DNA of 64,000 bases from an uncultured Halanaerobiaceae bacterium (GCA_964462585.1 CAYXAK010000001.1:1647-65646), one strand, 5' to 3'. Positions 9,013 to 21,447 are shown, counted from the first letter of the stretch. Notes: a model not told the origin generated them from the letters alone. Translations and numbers: made by a program.

Positions 9013-9041
9013 TTGACATGAAAATTGTTGTCTGTTAAACT
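9013..9041 (+). promoter_or_regulatory. SigA-type promoter of the rnf-like operon
   Basis: TTGACA(9013-9018)-17 nt-TAAACT(9036-9041) with TG extended -10; implies a leader of about 150 nt. Confidence 0.65.
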
Positions 9042-9201: not shown

Positions 9202-10515
9202 GTGGAAGATCTGAAAAAGTTTCCTATTGGAGGAGTGCATCTGCCTGAAGAAAAACACCTGACAACGGATTCCCCCATAGAAGATATGGCACTTCCAGCT
9301 CAGGTAACAATTCCTCTGCAGATGCATATTGGTGCCCCCTGTAATCCCGTTGTATCTGAGGGAGATGAGGTCAAAAGGGGTCAGCTGATTGCCAGCAATG
9401 AAGAGGCCCTCTCTGCCCGAATTCATGCTAGTATATCGGGAGTTTATCGGGGAATAGTTTCGCGTCCTGGACCTGATGGTTCCATGATAGATTGCATGTT
9501 GATCGAGAACGAAGGCCAGGATAATGAGGAGAAACTTCTGGAGCCTTCTTACGCAAAAGCGGAACTCGATGCGGATAAGATTGTTGAGCGGGTGAGAGAA
9601 GCCGGGATTGTAGGGCTGGGAGGAGCCTGTTTTCCCACACATGTGAAGCTATCTCCTCCGGAGGATAAACCGATTGATACGGTAATTATTAACGGAGCAG
9701 AATGTGAGCCCTATCTGACGGTCGATGACAGACTGATGCGGGAGAAGACAAAACTGCTCTTTGAAGGTCTTAATATGATCATGAAAGCAAGTGGAGCAGA
9801 AAAAGGCATTGTATCGAGTGAGATAAACAAGCCCAAAGCCGTGGAGGCGATCAGAGAGGAAGCTGAAAACTGGGATAACTTAAGCGGTGTACCTCTCGAT
9901 ACAAGATACCCCCACGGTGCAGAAAAACATCTGATAAAAGCTGTTTTGAACAGGGAGGTTCCCAGACGTGGTCTGCCGATGGATGTAGGTGTAATTGTGA
10001 ACAACGTTCAGACCACCACCAAAATTGCTGAAGCACTTTACAGGGGACGAACCCTAATAGATAGAGTTATAACAGTCAGTGGAAGAGCTTTAAAAGAGCA
10101 GAAAAATCTGCTGGTACCGATAGGAGCCTCTATAGGTGATGCTATTGACTTCTGCGGCGGTATAGACCGGGAGGAGTATTATACAATTATGGGAGGTCCT
10201 ATGACAGGCAAAAGAGTTGATAATCTGGACGTCCCGGTGGGAAAAGGTACTTCGGGTGTGGTGCTGCTCTCGGAAGAAGAATACAGTGATCCCGAAACGA
10301 GGGTCTGCATAAAATGCGGCAAGTGCGTTGATGTCTGCCCCATGTATCTGCCGCCCAACAGGATTACAGCTTTTGTAAACAATGATATGTATGAAGAAGC
10401 TGAGATTGCGGGTTTGGATGACTGTATTGAATGCGGAGCCTGTGCTTTTGTCTGTCCATCTAAAAGACCACTCCTGCGCTGGATCCAGCAGGGGAAGGCT
10501 GCTGCAGATAGTTAA
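9202..10515 (+). CDS. rnfC: Rnf complex subunit C (NADH/FMN-binding, two [4Fe-4S])
   Basis: HIGAP, GIVGLGGACFPTHVK, NGAECEPY, GGPMTG, CIKCGKCVDVCP and CIECGACAFVCP. Confidence 0.95.
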   Translation: MEDLKKFPIGGVHLPEEKHLTTDSPIEDMALPAQVTIPLQMHIGAPCNPVVSEGDEVKRGQLIASNEEALSARIHASISGVYRGIVSRPGPDGSMIDCMLIENEGQDNEEKLLEPSYAKAELDADKIVERVREAGIVGLGGACFPTHVKLSPPEDKPIDTVIINGAECEPYLTVDDRLMREKTKLLFEGLNMIMKASGAEKGIVSSEINKPKAVEAIREEAENWDNLSGVPLDTRYPHGAEKHLIKAVLNREVPRRGLPMDVGVIVNNVQTTTKIAEALYRGRTLIDRVITVSGRALKEQKNLLVPIGASIGDAIDFCGGIDREEYYTIMGGPMTGKRVDNLDVPVGKGTSGVVLLSEEEYSDPETRVCIKCGKCVDVCPMYLPPNRITAFVNNDMYEEAEIAGLDDCIECGACAFVCPSKRPLLRWIQQGKAAADS

Positions 10516-10579
10516 ACATTTTTTAAAATAAGAATTATACACTGGTATCTTTAGGTTAAAATTTCGGAGGTGAAATGTT

Positions 10580-13500
10580 TTGTCAAACTCTTTTGAGATG
10601 TCAGGTCCACACATTAGACAGCTCGATTCTATAGAAAAAACGATGTGGAATGTGGTCCTGGCATTAATTCCAGCTATATTTATGGCTGTGTATCTATTTG
10701 GCACTTATGCACTATATCTCGTTGCTGCCACCATGATCACCTGTATGCTGGTAGAGATTCCTTTCAATAAAGATTTGAGCGGTCGACAGAGATTTTTGGG
10801 GGATGGAAGTGCTGCAGTTACAGGTGTTATACTGGGACTTTCGCTTCCTCCCATAGCACCCTGGTGGGTGCCGATAGTTGGTGGAGCAGCTGCTATTCTC
10901 GTGGGCAAACAGCTATTTGGCGGTCTGGGGAATAATATCTTCAATCCCGCCCTGGTGGGAAGAGCAATACTTTCTATCTCCTGGACTGTTTACATGACAC
11001 AGTGGGTTACCCCTTTTGACGGTGTCAGCACCAGCACCCCTCTGGCCACACCCGGAGCTGATACTCCTCTCTGGGATCTATTTGTCGGTACAGTTCCCGG
11101 CAGCATAGGTGAAACATCTGCTCTGGCGTTATTGATAGGGGCAGCATATCTATATTATAAAGGCTATCTTGACCTGAGAATTTCTATACCCTATGTGGTC
11201 GCTGCCGCAGTGACTGCCTTTGTTCTTGGAATTAATCCTATATATTCTATACTGGCCGGTTCACTCATAATTGGTGCTTTCTTCATTGCCACTGATATGG
11301 TTTCATCTCCGGCCACGAGAAGCGGCAGGATCGTTTATGGAATTGGCTGTGGAGTTTTGACCATAGCTATCCGTTCCTTTACCGGGTTTCCGGAAGGTGT
11401 CACATTTGCCATACTGCTGATGAACGGTTTTTCTCATCTTTTTGATACACTTTTTGAGGGATATATATTTGGCCAGATCCATATGAAGAAGCGAAGAATT
11501 ATGCAGGTAGGTGTGGTTCTGCTCTCCACACTCATCTTTGCCGCTGTCGCTTTCGGAGGATTTCAGTTGACTGAAAGAGAATTCCTCCAGCCCCAGCATC
11601 GTGTGTTTAATCAGCACATGCATGAGTTTTTCCCCCATGCTGATGGATTTAACATGCTGGAAGAACTGCATCGTGATAGAATGCTCGCCGAGGTGAGACA
11701 GGGGGACCGCAGAGTTGGTTTTCTGGCCTATACCCATAGAATCGGTTATGATGGCAAGATAGAGAATATGGTTGCCATAAATCCTGATGGTGAAGTTATC
11801 GGCAGCAAAATAATAGATCACAATGAAAGCGCGACACTGGGAGCTCAGATCGAAAGGGAGGATTTCCTGGCCCAGTTTGTCGGCCTGAGATACGAGGATA
11901 TGAATCCTTCCTTTGGAGCAGGGGATTTTAATCTGGATACAATTACAAATGCCACGCTCTCTTCTATAGCCGTAGCTCAGACTGTTGAAACTTCACTTGA
12001 GCTTGTCAACAGACAGCTTCACGGCAACCGCTTTGATTACTTTAATCTGCCCACCGGAAGATATCGAGGGTCCGGTACGGGCTGGGGCGGCGAGATGGAA
12101 GCAGAGGTGGTCGTTGAAGATGGATTTTTGATGGATATAAGAGTTTTGAAACATAATGAGACTCCTCACAAGGCCAGAAGCGCCTTTGAAAGGCTGAAAT
12201 CCAAGATCATCAGCGCTCAGAGCACTGATGTAGATGTGATATCAGGATCTACACTGAGCAGCAACGGTCTGCTGGAAGCCATTGATGATGCTCTTGCTTC
12301 CAGAAGGCTGGAAATTATGGAGACCGATTTCTCACAGCTTGAAGATGGCCGATATACGGGAACAGCTCCCGGATATATAGGAGATATTGAAGTCGAAATT
12401 GAAATTCTCGACGGTGAGATTGTAGATATCGATGTGCTCCGTCACCGGGAGACCACCTATCTTGCTGAGCCCGCTCTGGAAAGATTGAAAAACCGGGTTA
12501 TCTCAGAACAGAGCGTTGATGTTGAAATGGTATCTGGCGCTACACTGACCAGCCGGGGTTTTCTGGCAGCTGTTTCTGATGCCGGTACTGTAGAAGAACC
12601 ATTTGCAGTTCCTGATGAAGATGGAACCTATACAGGTACAGCTGAGGGCTATCAGGGTGATATTGTACTCGATGTGGTCGTAGAAAATGGCGAAATCGTT
12701 GATATAATTGTAATTGATCATGCTGAGACAGATGATATTGCTGAACCGGCTTTCGAAGATCTGAAAGAACGCGTGCTGGAACAGCAATCTATTGATGTTG
12801 ATATAGTAACAGGTGCTACCTTCTCCAGTGAAGGCTATCTGCAGGCGATTGAAAATGCTTTTGCAGAGGTGACACCAGAATATGAAGATGGCGTCTATAC
12901 TGCCACTGGCCAGGGATATCAGAGTGATATCGAAATCGAAGTTACCATAAGTGAAGGTGAGATATCCTCAATAGAAGTTCTCTCACATGGGGAAACAGCT
13001 GAAATTGCCGATCCAGCTTTCGAGGATCTGGAAGAAGCCGTAATTGAAGCTCAAAGTGCTGATGTTGATACCGTAAGCGGTGCGACCGGCACAAGTGAAG
13101 GCTATCTGGAAGCACTGGCCCAGATACTGGATGAAGCCAGTCCTGATGAACCCGATGAAATAGAAGAAGTTGAAGAAGAACTGCAGGATGGAGAATATAT
13201 CGGTACAGGAGAAGGATACAATGATGATATAGAGGTCGAGATAACGGTTGAAGATGGAGAAATTGTAGCTGTGGAGGTGCTCAGTCACGCCGAAACCGAA
13301 GATATAGCAGAGCCTGCCTTTGAAGACCTGGAGCAGGCCGTGATAGACTCCCAGAGCACAGATGTTGATACAGTATCCGGTGCCACAGGTTCAAGTGAGG
13401 GCTATCTGGCAGCAGTGGATGAAGCACTGGACAAAGCGGGAGATGTTCCCGAAGATCCTGAAGAGCCGGAGGAAACTGAATTAATCTATGAAGATGGAAC

Positions 13501-16141
13501 CTATGTCGGCCTCGGTGAAGGATATAACGATGATATTGAGATTGAACTGACCGTCGAGGAAGGTGGAATCACAGCAATAGAGGTGCTCAGTCACGAAGAG
13601 ACCGAAGATATAGCCGAACCTGCTTTTGAAGATCTGGAGCAGGCTGTGATAGATTCCCAGAGCACAGATGTTGATACAGTATCCGGTGCCACAGGTTCCA
13701 GCGAAGGCTATCTGGCTGCAGTAGATGAAGCACTGGCCGCAGCCGAAACTACTGAAGATATTGAAGAGGAGTTTCCTGAAATTCCAGAACCTGAAATCGA
13801 ACTTGCTGATGGTAGATTTTCAGGTGAAGCAGCTGGATATAATGAAGAAATAGTAGTTGAGGTTGTTATTGAAAATGGTCTGATTGTGGGCATTGATGTA
13901 ATAGAACATGATGAAACCCCTGATATTGCCGAACCTGCCTTTGAAGAGATGAAAGATCGGGTTGTTGCTGCTCAGAACACCGAAGTTGACACAGTTACAG
14001 AAGCTACTGGTTCCAGTCAGGGTTTTTTACGGGCAGTGAATGTGGCTATAACCAGCTCAAATGAACAGGCTGAAAAAGAGCCAGCAGCAATTTACGAATC
14101 TGGAACTTACACGGCCTCTGCAGAAGGTTACAATGATATGATTGAGGTAGAGATTACTGTGGATGAACAGGAAATTACCTCAATAGAAGTCCTAAGCCAT
14201 GAGGATACTGAAGATATAGCCGAGCCTGCCTTCGAGGACCTGGAGCAGTCTGTGATAGATTCTCAGAGTACAGATGTAGATACGATATCCGGTGCCACAG
14301 GTTCCAGTGAGGGTTATCTGGCCGCTGTGGAGGCTGCTTTAAAGGAAGCTAAAATTGATGAAGATGTCGATGATGAGCCTGAAGCAGAAACCTTCACAGG
14401 CACTGGTGAAGGCTATAATGATGATATTGAGGTGCAGATTTCAGTCGAAGACGGAGATATCGTCGGGATAGAAGTCCTCAGCCATGGCGATACTGAAGAT
14501 ATAGCCGAGCCTGCCTTCGAGGACCTGGAGCAGGCTGTGATTGAAGCTCAGAGTACAGATGTTGACACAGTCTCAGGCGCTACGGCCTCAAGTGAGGGTT
14601 ATCTGGCCGCTGTGGAAGCTGCCATGGAAACAGCCGGCCTCATTGAAGAAGAACCCGAAGAAGAGCCAGCAGCAATTTACAAACCTGGAACTTACACAGC
14701 CTCTGCAGAAGGTTACAATGATATGATCAAGGTAGAGATTACTGTGGATGGACAGGAAATTACCGCAATAGAAGTATTAAGCCATGAGGAGACAGATAAT
14801 ATAGCAGAATCTGCCTTCGAGGATCTGGAGCAGGCTGTGATAGATTCTCAGAGCATCGATGTAGATACGATATCCGGTGCCACAGGTACCAGTGAGGGTT
14901 ATCTGGCCGCTGTGGAGGTTGCTTTAGAGGAAGCTAAAATTGATGAAGATATAAATGATGAGCTCGAAGAACCTTTAGAGGAGCCTGAAGCAGAAACCTT
15001 CACAGGTACTGGTGAAGGCTATAGAGGTGAAATTGAGATCGAAATAACTTTTGCAGATGATGAGATCACAGCAATAGAGGTTTTAAGCCACGAGGATTCA
15101 GAGGACATAGCTGAACCAGCCTTTTCAGACCTGGAAGAAGCAATAATAGAAATCCAGAGCACAGACGTCGATACAATTTCGGGAGCTACCGGATCATCTC
15201 AGGGATATCTTGAAGCAGCAAGAGATGCAATTGAGAAAGCCGGTCTGGAAGAGAAATTTATTTCAGCACCTGAAGATGAAGATGAAATTGAATTATTTGA
15301 TGGCAAATACAGAGGTGTTGGCGAGGGTTACAGTGGTGATGTAGAGGTAGAAATTACGGTGGAAGATAGCACCATAACCTCTATAGAGGTTTTGGATCAT
15401 GAAGATTCTGAAGATATAGCGGAACCTGCTTTTCAGGATCTAAAACAGGCTGTACTAGAAGTTCAAAACAGTAATGTAGATACTGTTTCCGGTGCTACCG
15501 GTTCCAGTGAGGGTTATCTTGAGGCCGTGGAAGAGGCAGTGGAAAAAGCTGGACAGCATCGGGATGAATCTGATGTTTATCTGGAGGATGGTTTATTTAC
15601 AGGTACAGGCCAGGGATATAGCGGTGCTATAGAGCTGGAGTTAACTGTTGAAGCCAGTGAGATCAGAGCAATAAAAGTTCTCAGCCATGAAGATTCAGAG
15701 GATATAGCTGAACCTGCTTTTGCAGACCTGGAGCAGGCTATTATTGAAGCCCAGAGATCGAATGTTGAAGCTGTGTCTGGAGCCACAGGTTCTTCACGGG
15801 GATATCTGGAAGCTGTATATGAAGCTTTATCGAAATCTGAAGTGGAAATACCTGAAGAAGAACCGGAGGTAAGTTTGGTTGACGGAACATTTGCCGGCGT
15901 AGGTGAAGGATACAGCGATGATATTGAAATAGAGCTGGTAATAACAGAAGGCAAAATCTCCTCAATAGAAGTTTTGAAACACGAAGATTCTCCCGATATA
16001 GCTGAACCTGCTTTTGAAGATTTAACAGAAAATATTATCCGTCATCAATCTTCAGATGTGGATGTTATTACAGGTGCAACAGGTTCCAGCCAGGGATTTT
16101 TGGCAGCAGTACAAAATGCTATAGAGAAAGCTGAAAACTAA
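10580..16141 (+). CDS. RnfD-RnfG fusion extended by 14 tandem extracytoplasmic FMN-binding domains (15 FMN-binding domains in total)
   Basis: Residues 1-~300 are RnfD (KQLFGGLGNNIFNPALVGR, DGVSTSTPL, GSIGETS, GAFFIATD, EGVTFAILLMN). Then a TM helix and RnfG-type domain (GYDGKI...HNESATLGA...DTITNATLSS). Then 14 repeats of G.Y.G.G.GY...I.V.....G.I..I.VL.H.ET..IAEPAF..L...V...QS.DVD.VSGAT.SS.GYL.A. Confidence 0.92.
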   Translation: MSNSFEMSGPHIRQLDSIEKTMWNVVLALIPAIFMAVYLFGTYALYLVAATMITCMLVEIPFNKDLSGRQRFLGDGSAAVTGVILGLSLPPIAPWWVPIVGGAAAILVGKQLFGGLGNNIFNPALVGRAILSISWTVYMTQWVTPFDGVSTSTPLATPGADTPLWDLFVGTVPGSIGETSALALLIGAAYLYYKGYLDLRISIPYVVAAAVTAFVLGINPIYSILAGSLIIGAFFIATDMVSSPATRSGRIVYGIGCGVLTIAIRSFTGFPEGVTFAILLMNGFSHLFDTLFEGYIFGQIHMKKRRIMQVGVVLLSTLIFAAVAFGGFQLTEREFLQPQHRVFNQHMHEFFPHADGFNMLEELHRDRMLAEVRQGDRRVGFLAYTHRIGYDGKIENMVAINPDGEVIGSKIIDHNESATLGAQIEREDFLAQFVGLRYEDMNPSFGAGDFNLDTITNATLSSIAVAQTVETSLELVNRQLHGNRFDYFNLPTGRYRGSGTGWGGEMEAEVVVEDGFLMDIRVLKHNETPHKARSAFERLKSKIISAQSTDVDVISGSTLSSNGLLEAIDDALASRRLEIMETDFSQLEDGRYTGTAPGYIGDIEVEIEILDGEIVDIDVLRHRETTYLAEPALERLKNRVISEQSVDVEMVSGATLTSRGFLAAVSDAGTVEEPFAVPDEDGTYTGTAEGYQGDIVLDVVVENGEIVDIIVIDHAETDDIAEPAFEDLKERVLEQQSIDVDIVTGATFSSEGYLQAIENAFAEVTPEYEDGVYTATGQGYQSDIEIEVTISEGEISSIEVLSHGETAEIADPAFEDLEEAVIEAQSADVDTVSGATGTSEGYLEALAQILDEASPDEPDEIEEVEEELQDGEYIGTGEGYNDDIEVEITVEDGEIVAVEVLSHAETEDIAEPAFEDLEQAVIDSQSTDVDTVSGATGSSEGYLAAVDEALDKAGDVPEDPEEPEETELIYEDGTYVGLGEGYNDDIEIELTVEEGGITAIEVLSHEETEDIAEPAFEDLEQAVIDSQSTDVDTVSGATGSSEGYLAAVDEALAAAETTEDIEEEFPEIPEPEIELADGRFSGEAAGYNEEIVVEVVIENGLIVGIDVIEHDETPDIAEPAFEEMKDRVVAAQNTEVDTVTEATGSSQGFLRAVNVAITSSNEQAEKEPAAIYESGTYTASAEGYNDMIEVEITVDEQEITSIEVLSHEDTEDIAEPAFEDLEQSVIDSQSTDVDTISGATGSSEGYLAAVEAALKEAKIDEDVDDEPEAETFTGTGEGYNDDIEVQISVEDGDIVGIEVLSHGDTEDIAEPAFEDLEQAVIEAQSTDVDTVSGATASSEGYLAAVEAAMETAGLIEEEPEEEPAAIYKPGTYTASAEGYNDMIKVEITVDGQEITAIEVLSHEETDNIAESAFEDLEQAVIDSQSIDVDTISGATGTSEGYLAAVEVALEEAKIDEDINDELEEPLEEPEAETFTGTGEGYRGEIEIEITFADDEITAIEVLSHEDSEDIAEPAFSDLEEAIIEIQSTDVDTISGATGSSQGYLEAARDAIEKAGLEEKFISAPEDEDEIELFDGKYRGVGEGYSGDVEVEITVEDSTITSIEVLDHEDSEDIAEPAFQDLKQAVLEVQNSNVDTVSGATGSSEGYLEAVEEAVEKAGQHRDESDVYLEDGLFTGTGQGYSGAIELELTVEASEIRAIKVLSHEDSEDIAEPAFADLEQAIIEAQRSNVEAVSGATGSSRGYLEAVYEALSKSEVEIPEEEPEVSLVDGTFAGVGEGYSDDIEIELVITEGKISSIEVLKHEDSPDIAEPAFEDLTENIIRHQSSDVDVITGATGSSQGFLAAVQNAIEKAEN
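12050..16138 (+). repeat. Intragenic tandem array of 14 FMN-binding domain repeats (about 250-320 nt each)
   Basis: Recurrent nucleotide motifs such as GAACCTGC(C/T)TT(T/C)GAAGA and TCCGGTGCCACAGGT; near-identical blocks begin at 14078 and 14663. Confidence 0.9.
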
Positions 16142-16170: not shown

Positions 16171-16764
16171 ATGGAAAAATTCAATAACATGTTCGAACAG
16201 GTAGTCCTGCTGGGAATTATCCCTATACTGGGAGGCAGCAGAAATCTAACCACAGCTGTTATTACAACTGTAATACTGGTTTTAACTGCCATTATCTTAA
16301 GATTGGTATCCAGACTTTTAAATCAGGATAGTCTGGCAGGAGCGCACTGGGTTTTATTCCTGGCAGTAGGAATATCTCTATCATATGTTGCATATCTTTT
16401 TTCCGCTTTTCTGTATCCTCAGGTCTATCAGCATTCGGGTATATATTTGCTTTTGATAGGAGTTTCTCCCCTGACCTATTATGGCTGTAAGCTAAATGTT
16501 TCTTTTTCTGATCTCTGGAAGAGATTTAATATCTTCTTTTTGACGATTATTGTTGTGAGTTTTTTCAGGGAACTCATCGGCTTTGGTTCAATACTGGGCA
16601 GGTCATTTTTTGAAGTTGGTTTTGCGCCGCTCAGTTCTTTTCAGGGGGCACCTGGAGCTTTTATAATCCTGGGCACCATCTGGTTGATTTTTCGCTGGAT
16701 AATATCTGCCAATTTGCTGGATGAAGGCATGCTAAAGATAGAGGAGGGGACTGAAATTGAGTGA
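16171..16764 (+). CDS. Divergent RnfE-like membrane subunit lacking the conserved Fe-S cysteines
   Basis: Operon position, several TM helices, FRELIGFGSILG and APGAFIILG motifs; LGIIP replaces LGxCP and IGVSP replaces IVVNC. Confidence 0.8.
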   Translation: MEKFNNMFEQVVLLGIIPILGGSRNLTTAVITTVILVLTAIILRLVSRLLNQDSLAGAHWVLFLAVGISLSYVAYLFSAFLYPQVYQHSGIYLLLIGVSPLTYYGCKLNVSFSDLWKRFNIFFLTIIVVSFFRELIGFGSILGRSFFEVGFAPLSSFQGAPGAFIILGTIWLIFRWIISANLLDEGMLKIEEGTEIE

Positions 16765-17311
16765 ATTAATGGGTATCTTCCTGGAAAATATCGCATCACA
16801 GAATATGGTTTTGATTTATTTTCTCGGAGTGCTTATATCTATCGCCGAGACCGGAGGTGTGAGAACATCACTTCTTAAAGGAGTTAAATATTCCCTGGGC
16901 TTATTCTTTGCTGTAATAATAGGTGTAATTGTGGCCGATTCCCTTCCTCTGGCTCTGGAATTCATACATCCCTGGATTTTTCTTCTGACAGCCCTGGGAG
17001 CAGTTTTTATCTTTCAACTCATGGGGGATCTAAAGGGCGATTTTTATGGAATACCCAGACTTTTTCTGCCCCTGATACCTATTGTGGGCCTGCAATATCT
17101 GCTGGTGGATAGAGGACTCAGTTTTGATGTGATGGTAATTTCTGCTCTGGCCAATTCTATAGGGTTTTATATGGGCTTTATCCTTATAGGGACCATAAAG
17201 GAACAGATAATGATCTCGGAAACTGATGATATATATAAATTTGCCCCGGCACTCTTAATCAGCCTGGGTGTTTTGAGCATGGCAGTTAAGGGGTTTGCCT
17301 TTCTGTACTGA
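16757..17311 (+). CDS. Divergent RnfA-like membrane subunit with no cysteines
   Basis: Overlaps the rnfE-like stop; NMVLIYFLG, FLPLI, IGFYMGFILIGTIKEQI, APALLISLGVLSMAVKGF resemble RnfA; the translation contains no Cys. Confidence 0.78.
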   Translation: MSELMGIFLENIASQNMVLIYFLGVLISIAETGGVRTSLLKGVKYSLGLFFAVIIGVIVADSLPLALEFIHPWIFLLTALGAVFIFQLMGDLKGDFYGIPRLFLPLIPIVGLQYLLVDRGLSFDVMVISALANSIGFYMGFILIGTIKEQIMISETDDIYKFAPALLISLGVLSMAVKGFAFLY

Positions 17312-18518: not shown

Positions 18519-19406
18519 ATGAATAATAATCAAAAGGATAGATTAATATTTTATATCATAGTCTCCTTGGTTATACACCTGGGTTTATTTTATTTTGTGC
18601 CCTGGGGAGGTTTTGCCACTGGATTAAATCCAGAAGGGAGAACTATGGCTGATTTTGAGTTCATTCAGGTCGTGGATTTTGAGGAACTGCCTGAGGAAGG
18701 TATAGAAGTCGAGGAGGAGACCGTAGAACACGAGCCTGCAGAACCCGAAGAAGAGGAGATAGTTGAGGATACAGAGCCTGATCCTGAACCCGAGCCTGAA
18801 ACTGAAGTTGATGAACCAGAACCTGAACCGGAAGAAGAAGTTGTAGAGGAAGTAGAGGAAGAAGAAATAGAAGAGGAAGTGGATGAAGAGCCTGAAACTG
18901 AGGAAGAAGTTATAACAGCGGAAGAATCTGAATCTGAAATAGAAGCTCCTGAAGAGATTGAAGAGGAAGAAGCGGAAGAAACTTCACCGGAAGAAGAAAG
19001 GGAGGCTGCAAGAGCTGAAGAAGAAGCCGAAGAGATAGAGGAGGCTGAGGATGAAGCTCAGGCTGCTGCTGGTGACGAAGCAGAGGAAGCCCCTCCTTCT
19101 GCCGGAGAGATGGTTTTGAGTTCACAGCTTCCTGTTTACCCTAAATATTCAGTTGGTCCAGAAGAGACGGGAGAAGTTGTAATATCTGCCCGTGTAGATG
19201 TAAATGGCGAGATCATGGAAGTGAATGTTATTGATAGTTCCGGTGTAGAAGCCATGGACAGAAATGCACAGAATACGATTGAACATGGCTGGGATTTCAA
19301 TTCCTATTCAAGCCCCTATACAATGGAGATTATGGTCAGTTATAATCTCGATGAGAGGGGAGATCCTGTGATCGATTATGAACTGATACAGCTTGTACTT
19401 GATTAA
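18519..19406 (+). CDS. TonB/TolA-like energy transducer with a long Glu/Pro-rich linker
   Basis: TM anchor with SxxxH (SLVIH), about 140-aa E/P-rich linker, TonB C-terminal-like domain PVYP...GEV...VDVNG...SSG..AMDRNA...WDF. Confidence 0.82.
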   Translation: MNNNQKDRLIFYIIVSLVIHLGLFYFVPWGGFATGLNPEGRTMADFEFIQVVDFEELPEEGIEVEEETVEHEPAEPEEEEIVEDTEPDPEPEPETEVDEPEPEPEEEVVEEVEEEEIEEEVDEEPETEEEVITAEESESEIEAPEEIEEEEAEETSPEEEREAARAEEEAEEIEEAEDEAQAAAGDEAEEAPPSAGEMVLSSQLPVYPKYSVGPEETGEVVISARVDVNGEIMEVNVIDSSGVEAMDRNAQNTIEHGWDFNSYSSPYTMEIMVSYNLDERGDPVIDYELIQLVLD

Positions 19407-19428
19407 TTTTGAAAGAGGTGGTCGGTTA

Positions 19429-21447
19429 ATGTCTGTCAAGAGAAATAATGTAATTTCTGCGGTTATTTTTCCCTTTTTTATTTTAATAACGGTTTTCTTA
19501 TTTTCCTTCGGAGCAGCTGGCTCTGAACTGCAAGAGACTATAGATGATCATGGCAATCTGAGGCTTTTAAATGAGTATATAGCTATCGTTGTCAATACAG
19601 AAGATAATGCCAGAAGCAGATTTGCTGTTGAGACAACAGGTGGTGATCCGGGCAGAGAAGAGGATGAAAATATGCCCCTTATCTACGGCCGACCAATCCC
19701 CTGGACCTCCTATACTACTTTCAGAATTGATGGAGAAAATTACGTCTTTGGTGGCGAAACTGATAGAAGAGCAGGTGGAGGGGCGAGTTATGGTGAAGAG
19801 CTTAGAGAACCGGAGGTCCAGGATGGAACTATAGTCTCAGAATATGAACTCAACGAGCTGCAAATAGAACAGAATTTAGAAATTGTACAGAGCATCACCA
19901 CTGGACTGTATGATACAGCCAGAATTGAATACATTGTAACTAATACCGGTGATGAGCCTAAAGAGACCGGCACCAGAATAATGCTTGATACCATGCTGGG
20001 GGAGGTAGATGGGTCTCCTTTTAGAGTGGAAGAAGAAGCAATCACTACAGATACCAGGATGACCAGGGATGAACTGCCAAATTTTTACCAGTCTTTTGAT
20101 AAGCTCACCGATCCCCAGATTACATCACAGGGTGGTTTTATAGGTGAAAATATCCATACTCCCGATAGAGTATATATGTCAAACTGGGGAAGTCTGGCAG
20201 ATGGTCCCTGGGATTTTAATTTTGAACCCGGCAGAGAATTTTTAAGAGAAGGTGAGTTTGAAACTGACAGCGCTATCGCCCTTTACTGGGATCCTGATAC
20301 CATAGAGCCTGGTGAAACTGTAACTTATGCCACAACATACGGTCTCGGTGGTATATCTATGGTGCCGGGAATGCTTTCACTCGGTATTAGTGCTCCCACT
20401 GAATTTTCTTTTTCACCTACAACCCCGGAACTGCCCGTGGTGGCTTATATTGAAAACACCACGGAAATCACCGCGGAGAATGTCACTGTTTCCATAGATC
20501 TACCGGATTACCTGGAAGCCGAAGAGCCGGCACGTGAAATCGGTAATCTGGAGGCAGGGGAAGTAGCTCAGATCAACTATTATGCCAGAGCTTTAACCGA
20601 AGATCTGCCCGGCAGAACAACCTTTGAAATCAGCGCTGAAGCTGACAATACCGATACCAATATTGCGGACAGGCAGATAGATCTCATTGCACCCGCTCAG
20701 CTGGAAACCGATCTTTCCCTGGTGGAAGAGCTTTCTTTTGAAGATGGCAGGCTATCACCGCTTCCATTTCAAATGAGACTGGAAATTGAAAATGTGGGTG
20801 AAAGACCATTTGAGGATTTTGAGAGTGAATTGATTATTCCACCTGGAATCGATCTGGCCAGCTACGAAAGGGCGGAAAAGATGAGCTCCAGAATTGGACC
20901 CGGGGAGAGTATTAATATTGATTGGAGGCTTATTCCCCATGATGTAGAGGGAACTTTCCCTTTTGCCGTACAGATAAGCGGCCGTGGAGGTTATTCTGAA
21001 ACGAAGAGGGAATCGATCGAGATTCCTCCTACCTCTCCTTCGATATATTATGAAGTTAAACGTTCCAGTTCTGAGAGCAATATACTGACAGTAGATGTAA
21101 AGGCTGCTAATCTGGATGATAGCATTGAAAGAGTCGAGTTTAAATTCGGCTACAATGAAGAGATTCTAAACCATGTATTTTCCAGCAGAGGAACTTATTT
21201 TGTCAGAGATGAGAGGTTGATGGCCTGGAATGGACCTCAGGAGATAACTGATGAAACTATCAGTTTTGAGGAACAGCTACCTGATGGCCTTAACCAGGGT
21301 GGACTGGCCAGAATGAGGTTTAAAATAGAGGTAGATGGAACTGAAGAGATGGAAGAACTGGAGAATTTGGTTGATGAATTCGAAATACTTGAAGCCAGTA
21401 TATTTGATGAAGACGGAACAGAAGATGATGCTTTACTGATCAACTAA
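19429..21447 (+). CDS. Large exported protein with an uncharacterised N-terminal domain, Ig/CARDB-like repeats and a C-terminal cohesin-like domain
   Basis: Signal peptide; TTGGDP...PWTSYTT and RIMLDTMLG..DGSPF motifs; two ..IEN..G... beta-sandwich-like units; C-terminal TVDV...FKFGYNEEIL...GGLARMRFK pattern. Confidence 0.6.
   Translation: MSVKRNNVISAVIFPFFILITVFLFSFGAAGSELQETIDDHGNLRLLNEYIAIVVNTEDNARSRFAVETTGGDPGREEDENMPLIYGRPIPWTSYTTFRIDGENYVFGGETDRRAGGGASYGEELREPEVQDGTIVSEYELNELQIEQNLEIVQSITTGLYDTARIEYIVTNTGDEPKETGTRIMLDTMLGEVDGSPFRVEEEAITTDTRMTRDELPNFYQSFDKLTDPQITSQGGFIGENIHTPDRVYMSNWGSLADGPWDFNFEPGREFLREGEFETDSAIALYWDPDTIEPGETVTYATTYGLGGISMVPGMLSLGISAPTEFSFSPTTPELPVVAYIENTTEITAENVTVSIDLPDYLEAEEPAREIGNLEAGEVAQINYYARALTEDLPGRTTFEISAEADNTDTNIADRQIDLIAPAQLETDLSLVEELSFEDGRLSPLPFQMRLEIENVGERPFEDFESELIIPPGIDLASYERAEKMSSRIGPGESINIDWRLIPHDVEGTFPFAVQISGRGGYSETKRESIEIPPTSPSIYYEVKRSSSESNILTVDVKAANLDDSIERVEFKFGYNEEILNHVFSSRGTYFVRDERLMAWNGPQEITDETISFEEQLPDGLNQGGLARMRFKIEVDGTEEMEELENLVDEFEILEASIFDEDGTEDDALLIN

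Follow-up and report, generated by a model that had tools for sequence, protein, structure and literature searches.

A four-gene operon in an uncultured Halanaerobiaceae bacterium encodes what appears to be half of an Rnf complex. The operon lies in a window of 64,000 nucleotides (GCA_964462585.1 CAYXAK010000001.1:1647-65646) and consists of rnfC, a single gene joining rnfD, rnfG and 14 short FMN_bind repeats, and divergent versions of rnfE and rnfA, here called rnfE' and rnfA', followed by exbB, exbD and tonB. The gene content, the fusion, the cofactor residues kept in RnfC, RnfD and RnfG, the ligands lost from RnfE' and RnfA' and the conservation of all of these are read from sequence, and the function proposed here is a prediction from them. 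We consider it somewhat more likely than not that the operon specifies a one-way, non-pumping electron wire: cytoplasmic NADH would be the source, RnfC and RnfD the route across the membrane, and a predicted periplasmic chain of 15 flavin-binding domains the receiving end. The features of the region are as follows, with positions counted from the first letter of the window.

9013..9041, plus strand: promoter-like site upstream of rnfC (consensus match TTGACA-17-TAAACT with TG, 10/12)
9202..10515, plus strand: rnfC, NADH/FMN domain intact, two [4Fe-4S] motifs (TIGR01945, 498.6 bits against a cut-off of 246)
10580..16141, plus strand: fused rnfD:rnfG:(FMN_bind)14 gene, 1853 aa (ORF, Pfam, NCBIfam)
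10601..11464, plus strand: RnfD membrane domain, aa 8-295 (Pfam; alignment to 7ZC6_D and 9ERI_D)
within 10601..11464, plus strand: RnfD riboflavin-site residues N122 and D239 (alignment to 7ZC6_D and 9ERI_D)
codon 11036-11038, plus strand: RnfD FMN acceptor T153 (alignment; DGVSTST site)
11492..11566, plus strand: RnfG-derived membrane helix, aa 305-329, with KKRR just before it (hydropathy peak 2.35; helix in a low-confidence model)
11594..12022, plus strand: RnfG domain, acceptor T459 in DTITNAT (TIGR01947; 7ZC6_G match, E 6.7e-11)
12047..16138, plus strand: 14 short FMN_bind repeats (motif, repeat alignment, structure match)
16171..16764, plus strand: rnfE', divergent (Pfam Rnf-Nqr, E 1.5e-7; TIGR01948, 21 bits against a cut-off of 213)
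16757..17311, plus strand: rnfA', divergent, overlapping rnfE' by 8 nt (Pfam Rnf-Nqr, E 2.2e-6; TIGR01943, 40 bits against a cut-off of 229)

The fusion gene begins with a TTG start codon, and the window contains no N. Pfam assigns NQR2_RnfD_RnfE to residues 8-295 of the product (E 6e-99) and finds 15 FMN_bind stretches, comprising one RnfG domain, for which the best TIGR01947 stretch is 339-477, and the 14 short repeats. An earlier note made from the sequence alone had described a single 1853-residue polypeptide with RnfD, an RnfG-type domain, 14 repeats and 16 candidate threonines; this description holds, and the family scan returns the domain count given there. Threonine ends all 16 candidate sites, and within the repeats the acceptors are residues 558, 655, 747, 836, 936, 1038 and 1143 (repeats 1-7) and 1240, 1335, 1435, 1537, 1640, 1736 and 1834 (repeats 8-14). 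The motif [ST]GA[ST] is found in 12 of the 14 repeats with SGST in repeat 1 and TEAT in repeat 7, as previously counted, but the full D-x-x-[ST]-G-A-[ST] motif is present in only 10, repeats 2 and 13 beginning with E. Outside the repeats, the sites are TNAT in RnfG (DTITNAT) and STST in RnfD (DGVSTST). The RnfD variant is not alarming since TTAT stands at the flavinylation site in the RnfD structures from C. tetanomorphum and A. woodii.

Several observations support multi-flavinylation of the fusion by ApbE, a prediction that is well founded in homology. T153, N122 and D239 of RnfD, T459 of RnfG and the threonine of repeat 1 are the same in every one of the 16 fusions aligned, and the three RnfD residues correspond to T156, N123 and D249 of A. 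woodii (PMC11889175). The short repeats are spaced by 89-105 residues and share 38-85% protein identity; a structure match for repeat 5 gives 8P2B (E 1.5e-12) and 8P2A, both of them flavinylated domains. A model of residues 1-680 is weak (mean pLDDT 62, pTM 0.40) and bears on folds only, which match RnfD, RnfG and 8P2B, with an rmsd of 1.5 A between the modelled repeat and 8P2B. The genome encodes one ApbE (contig C33, E 1.6e-85), unlinked to the operon. Because substitution of the Gly or Ala of the motif about halves flavinylation, while loss of the Asp matters little (PMC12052999, section 8), the 16 sites earlier proposed are best read as an upper bound on FMN content, with partial loading conceivable at four to six of them, the variant ones.

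The array is predicted to lie outside the cytoplasm, based on the KKRR preceding the RnfG helix and the known topology of a ten-helix RnfD and a periplasmic RnfG (PMC11889175). Its linkers had been described as acidic, and the array is indeed acidic (D+E fraction 0.28), but the linkers are short (6-22 aa, mean 15, total 197 residues) and acidity is a trait of the host, the neighboring TonB and an SLH protein standing at 0.34 and 0.32 and three Limnochordia arrays at 0.15-0.16. Acidic linkers were rejected as a functional trait since host halophily explains the acidity.

The earlier concern that the fusion or its repeat number could be an assembly artefact was addressed with contigs from 4 of 13 listed sequencing runs. 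In three soda-lake runs from three studies, which may themselves be the source of the window DNA, the long contig pieces listed have 0 other letters and depth is roughly flat over the array. Single contigs cover 10300-13378 or 11163-13378 and so cross the RnfD-RnfG-repeat junction, although among the contig pieces listed none covers the whole gene. An artefact, or a decaying duplicate, would fit with the breaks or gaps that the array causes in several assemblies and with the fourth run, in which a form 285 nt shorter has one repeat fewer. Against it are 15 further proteins with the RnfD:G:repeat layout (1054-1877 aa), which came out of 7998 candidates scored. Two of them are from Limnochordia, and one, a partial sequence named Halarsenatibacter silvermanii, is 85% identical over residues 1-480. 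Two other species of the genus share the count of 14 repeats and the positions of both variants, SGST in the first and TEAT in the seventh. Together with the junction contigs and the purifying selection on RnfE' and RnfA' described below, these make an artefact or decaying duplicate a negligible prospect. The RnfD:G:repeat fusion is real and its repeat number is variable, ranging from 2 to 14 across relatives and mostly from 2 to 5 outside the window's family, bearing in mind that counts from draft genomes can be too low where gaps fall in the array. A seemingly extra catalytic domain in a relative of 1288 aa was rejected as it proved to be an assembly gap. In two second-class genomes (L234, L243) the array is divided into two ORFs by a frameshift, an assembly error or a real split.

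The real oddity, absent from the earlier note, is the set of partner genes, which has no rnfB and a cysteine-less rnfE and rnfA. The gaps between rnfC and the fusion, the fusion and rnfE', and rnfE' and rnfA' are 64, 29 and -8 nt. Promoter-like sites in the region number 22 against 16.2 in shuffles and are hence weak; the promoter and terminator scan as a whole gave little above shuffles. RnfC retains the cysteines of both [4Fe-4S] motifs (369/372/375/379 and 408/411/414/418). By a Pfam scan of the window's genes, rnfB is absent from the operon, and exbB comes after rnfA'. TonB/ExbBD, with its role in iron uptake, was rejected as a conserved partner: it directly follows rnfA' in this genus only (4/4 loci), stands after an mrp block in the sister genus g2 and is absent in the remaining loci. 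After tonB, window positions 19393-21447 encode an acidic, exported-looking protein of 684 aa with no Pfam match and 57-63% identity within the genus at the same place.

In Rnf, four cysteines of RnfA and RnfE ligate a membrane [2Fe-2S] cluster that carries electrons across the two subunits (PMC11889175) and is described as the only way across them (PMC12174285, section 13). Judged from alignment to the ordinary subunits encoded in this genome and to subunits of known structure, RnfE' and RnfA' have none of the four: RnfE' has Ile and Pro at these positions, and RnfA' has Leu and a gap. RnfA' is without any cysteine, and its TTNC stretch is not alignable. The Na+ site residues of A. woodii likewise seem to be missing, with N107 changed to S, E115 to K and R67 not kept in RnfE, and the T110 region gapped in RnfA, in a reading made by eye against PMC11889175 from alignments of about 20-25% identity and uncertain register. 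Among three species of the genus, the dN of RnfE' and RnfA' is 0.19-0.26, about two to three times that of RnfC and RnfD, and dS is 1.9-2.3 or saturated; by these rates both genes are relaxed yet under purifying selection.

By gene content and alignment, the cysteine-less, RnfB-less four-gene operon is found again in other Halanaerobiales and also in a second class, the one that includes Limnochordia; both are described as double-membraned lineages (PMC11456536). With RnfA' as the query, 30 of 72 genomes of the order (its own included) match at E 3.4e-12 or better, and ordinary RnfA scores 2.7e-8 or worse in the same search. Twenty regions were taken from 19 of the 29 other matching genomes. 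Twelve have the order C - D:G:repeats - E' - A', four are cut by contig ends, and four have an RnfD that retains the RnfG helix only, with no outside domain. Loci of this last form (L064, L068, L069 and L070, from the Halanaerobium-level genus g16) read rnfC - rnfD (334 aa with the helix) - E' - A', and their RnfDs fall in the same RnfD group as the fusions. No rnfB follows rnfA' in any of the 20 regions, one of which ends 13 nt past that gene; weak RnfB matches in three regions are ferredoxin-type ORFs lying upstream on the opposite strand. The cluster cysteines are absent in 16/16 RnfE' and 17/17 RnfA' aligned, and in all 57 proteins that a profile search yielded, each with Pro at the second position, a figure that is partly circular as the profile was built from cysteine-less sequences. 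Carriers include genomes labelled as strains of Halanaerobium saccharolyticum.

The four-gene arrangement is also present on a digester contig 97% identical to a protein that NCBI labels as Limnochordia, and the name given here to the second class depends on that label. A search of 95 genomes of the class with the RnfE' of this operon gives 36 genomes with a match at E 8.3e-38 or better, and 34 of the 36 have a second rnfE match. Among the 20 carrier regions examined out of these 36, the ligands are absent in 20/20 RnfE' and 19/19 RnfA', comEA follows rnfA' in 19/19, and the fusion is present in 18/20. As a control, 27 of 28 other rnfE loci in a 401-genome phylum sample have an adjacent rnfB and the RnfA cysteines, the 28th being a cysteine-less operon; this sample was limited to at most 8 candidates per genome, and its Halanaerobiales-built profile missed second-class RnfE' copies found later. 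In RnfD trees, operons of both classes fall on one side of a branch against 8 (support 98/94) and 13 (support 96) ordinary RnfDs. These trees are unrooted and hold few ordinary RnfDs, among them copies from the same genomes, and one long lone RnfD was excluded from the second.

In the outward wire that we prefer, ApbE would load FMN on the array threonines. RnfC would oxidize NADH and pass single electrons via its [4Fe-4S] clusters to the riboflavin of RnfD, from which they would move to the RnfD FMN and the RnfG FMN, the known reverse path of Rnf. From RnfG they would enter the array and hop by collision along its flexible beads to a final acceptor, either periplasmic or located at the outer membrane. 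RnfE' and RnfA' would persist as a cofactor-free scaffold. With neither RnfB nor an A/E cluster the U-shaped path of Rnf would be halved, and without a cluster in RnfE' and RnfA' electrons could not go back to ferredoxin. The genome speaks for this arrangement in having three rnfC and only one rnfB, whose sole N-terminus match sits in the ordinary operon. Outward flow is favored because the potential of a homologous flavinylated domain, -184 mV (PMC10339131; another protein, at pH 7), lies downhill from NADH and because there is a precedent in the one-way NAD(P)H export proposed for two-subunit Nqr/Rnf-like systems (PMC8238504, PMC11334425). Such flow would be expected to spend membrane potential. 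It could serve NADH disposal or the supply of reductant outside the cell, beside an ordinary energy-conserving Rnf, and repeat number could tune reach or capacity. Several observations count against the wire: no terminal reductase was identified in the genome, partial ligand loss also occurs in complete Rnf, as 5 of the 27 ordinary control operons (L176, L177, L179, L186 and L200) have an RnfE without the second 'NC' cysteine motif, and 4 of the 20 Halanaerobiales loci have the helix-only RnfD with no outside domain.

No pumping is predicted for this wire because RnfE' and RnfA' seem to be without the Na+ site residues and RnfD, according to the A. woodii paper (PMC11889175, section 10), carries electrons only. 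Whether Na+ crosses via RnfD or via RnfA/E is disputed, and other authors put the pump in RnfD (PMC12174285, section 18). The A/E model implies that a half-Rnf should not pump, whereas under the RnfD model it might.

A periplasm is some 15-30 nm wide, and the stretched array would measure about 110 nm (0.36 nm per residue, an assumed 3 nm per domain and the 197 linker residues). The earlier suggestion that the array could cross the periplasm is possible for this genome, which has one Omp85, but most relatives have 2-5 repeats and the short ones could not span it, so that spanning is not the conserved job. Arrays of this beads-on-a-string kind have no fixed flavin spacing (PMC11334425).

The direction of flow is the point on which the main competing explanation differs. 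The flavin chain could replace RnfB and the A/E pair as an entry, bringing electrons from a low-potential donor, periplasmic or external (formate or H2 enzymes, another cell or a mineral), to NAD+ and charging the membrane like half of a redox loop; we regard this as unlikely. The order RnfG > RnfD > RnfC > NAD+ is the direction in which Rnf normally runs (PMC12174285), and a Tat-type FdnG formate dehydrogenase is encoded in this genome (TIGR01553, 925 bits), and 4 of the 5 other genomes in its genus, where arrays are longest, have FdnG-like genes too. However, such genes were found in only 8/72 genomes of the order and 7/95 of the second class, and not in the 6 genomes of sister genus g2 or in the two main second-class carrier families (0/9 and 0/27). 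FdnG was therefore rejected as a general partner, as it is not found in most carriers. A flavin at -184 mV would also be a sink above NAD+ (PMC10339131).

An array with no protein partner at all, acting at the cell surface as an NADH-fed scavenger of oxygen or other oxidants or as an electron store, seems improbable. It would agree with the reaction of reduced SaFMN3 with O2 and with flavins of one potential and no directionality (PMC10339131), with the free variation in repeat number and with the finding that no reductase gene travels with the operon in either class. A scavenger would, however, make peroxide; its retention as a four-gene operon in two classes seems costly, and repeats 1-3 and 7 are conserved by position across species, hinting at specific contacts. 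We give as little weight to a branched complete Rnf, in which the fusion and RnfC would join the ordinary RnfA, RnfE and RnfB, or RnfE' and RnfA' would use a cysteine-free route, possibly with an Mrp antiporter, and the array would be a side exit of an ion pump. The ordinary rnfCDGEAB operon of this genome, the second rnfE match in nearly all second-class carriers and the published proposal of branching by multi-flavinylated RnfG (PMC8238504) are in its favor. So is an mrp-type antiporter block after rnfA' in genus g2 and in one further genome (G013), but no such block follows rnfA' in the window, in Halanaerobium or in the second class. The dedicated RnfE' and RnfA', kept under selection without ligands and, by alignment, without the A. 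woodii Na+ site residues, also argue against it. The full mrp-type block is seen in L060:1-5478 (with a 14 nt gap), L061:12913-18001, L074 and L075, and two more distant mrp clusters of the window's genome lie on contig C25.

Among known systems, Rnf itself (RnfABCDGE; 7ZC6, 9ERI, 8AHX) is alike in the cofactor residues of RnfC, RnfD and RnfG, in having RnfE and RnfA homologues and in the order C-D-G-E-A. It differs in that the present operon has no rnfB and no A/E cluster ligands, fuses D to G, adds 14 FMN_bind domains and encodes RnfE' and RnfA' far below the family cut-offs. The Nqr/Rnf-like one-way complexes share the feature that only the RnfD leg crosses the membrane, with NAD(P)H-to-outside flow proposed; as portrayed in PMC8238504 and PMC11334425, they are two-subunit systems in which RnfD is fused to a PF00175 NAD-binding domain and has no flavinylation Thr. 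Here, in contrast, the input is a true RnfC, Pfam finds no PF00175 in the fusion ORF or its neighbors, T153 and RnfE'/RnfA' are retained, and the acceptor domains, in many copies, belong to the RnfD chain itself. RNF clusters with a multi-flavinylated RnfG likewise have it extended by further FMN_bind domains, but there it is interpreted as giving a complete, branched RNF a second exit (PMC8238504). Passages on the subject in that paper make no mention of an RnfD fusion, a missing RnfB or a missing cluster, though its supplementary file 1 may list such clusters. CbFMN4 and SaFMN3 (8P2B, 8P2A) share the short domain, motif and flexible linkers but have 3-4 domains and no known electron source as presented in PMC10339131, whereas 14-15 domains are here hard-wired to a membrane conduit.

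The copy number that had been thought unusual is real, but it barely exceeds the maximum of 13 flavinylation sites in one protein given in PMC8238504; with such proteins and multi-flavinylated RnfG already published, the count of repeats alone is incremental. For a D:G:array fusion within a cluster-less, RnfB-less operon, no description was found in a search of the open literature. Several RnfE' proteins carry the annotation "hypothetical", and this may be why the operon has been overlooked so far. The core of Rnf, including its intramembrane [2Fe-2S] cluster, is regarded as strictly conserved, and here a lineage keeps RnfA and RnfE but has lost the cluster ligands and RnfB. Multi-flavinylated proteins, for which the electron source is mostly unknown, would gain a built-in donor. 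Going by record names, the cultured carriers include Halarsenatibacter silvermanii and Halanaerobium saccharolyticum. Digester Limnochordia have been suggested to take part in electron transfer (PMC11456536), and the half-Rnf is a concrete candidate for that role. More tentatively, and with less confidence than we place in the wire itself, the operon could represent an overlooked ancient sister of Rnf, confined to NADH-to-surface conduction without pumping, in Firmicutes with two membranes. Its flavin string, tunable in length and with up to 16 covalent FMN per chain, would be the haem-free counterpart of multi-haem wires, serving mineral reduction by soda-lake Halanaerobiales and supplying the conduit still lacking for the direct interspecies electron transfer that has been proposed for digester Limnochordia. 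It would also amount to a natural knock-out of the A/E cluster and thereby a test of where Rnf pumps sodium.

The genome, which is 92% complete, carries its ordinary rnfCDGEAB on contig C22. No terminal reductase was identified in it and no ORF has more than one CxxCH, the mark sought for multi-haem cytochromes; four Mo-bisPGD enzymes resemble formate dehydrogenases. A third Rnf-like operon (L257, G000:C3:27573-32585) has the order D G E A C after a 290-aa protein, with a separate single RnfG, no rnfB and an E/A pair without any cysteine, and its RnfD branches apart from the fusion group in the RnfD trees. At two further loci (L258, G000:C41:8007-11720; L259, G000:C77:4527-7907), a divergent RnfD-like membrane domain is fused to a formate-dehydrogenase-like Mo-bisPGD enzyme and Fe-S domains in proteins of 1237 and 1126 aa, which by their domain content could possibly form another one-way conduit. 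Exported-looking proteins with two FMN_bind domains each are encoded at G000:C58:4777-5493, with a formate dehydrogenase cluster on one side and a ferritin-like gene on the other, and at G000:C59:7363-8007; both are possible soluble partners, going by their domains. A lone rnfD at G000:C71:4585-5451 has an intact DMTTAAT site and no other rnf gene close by.
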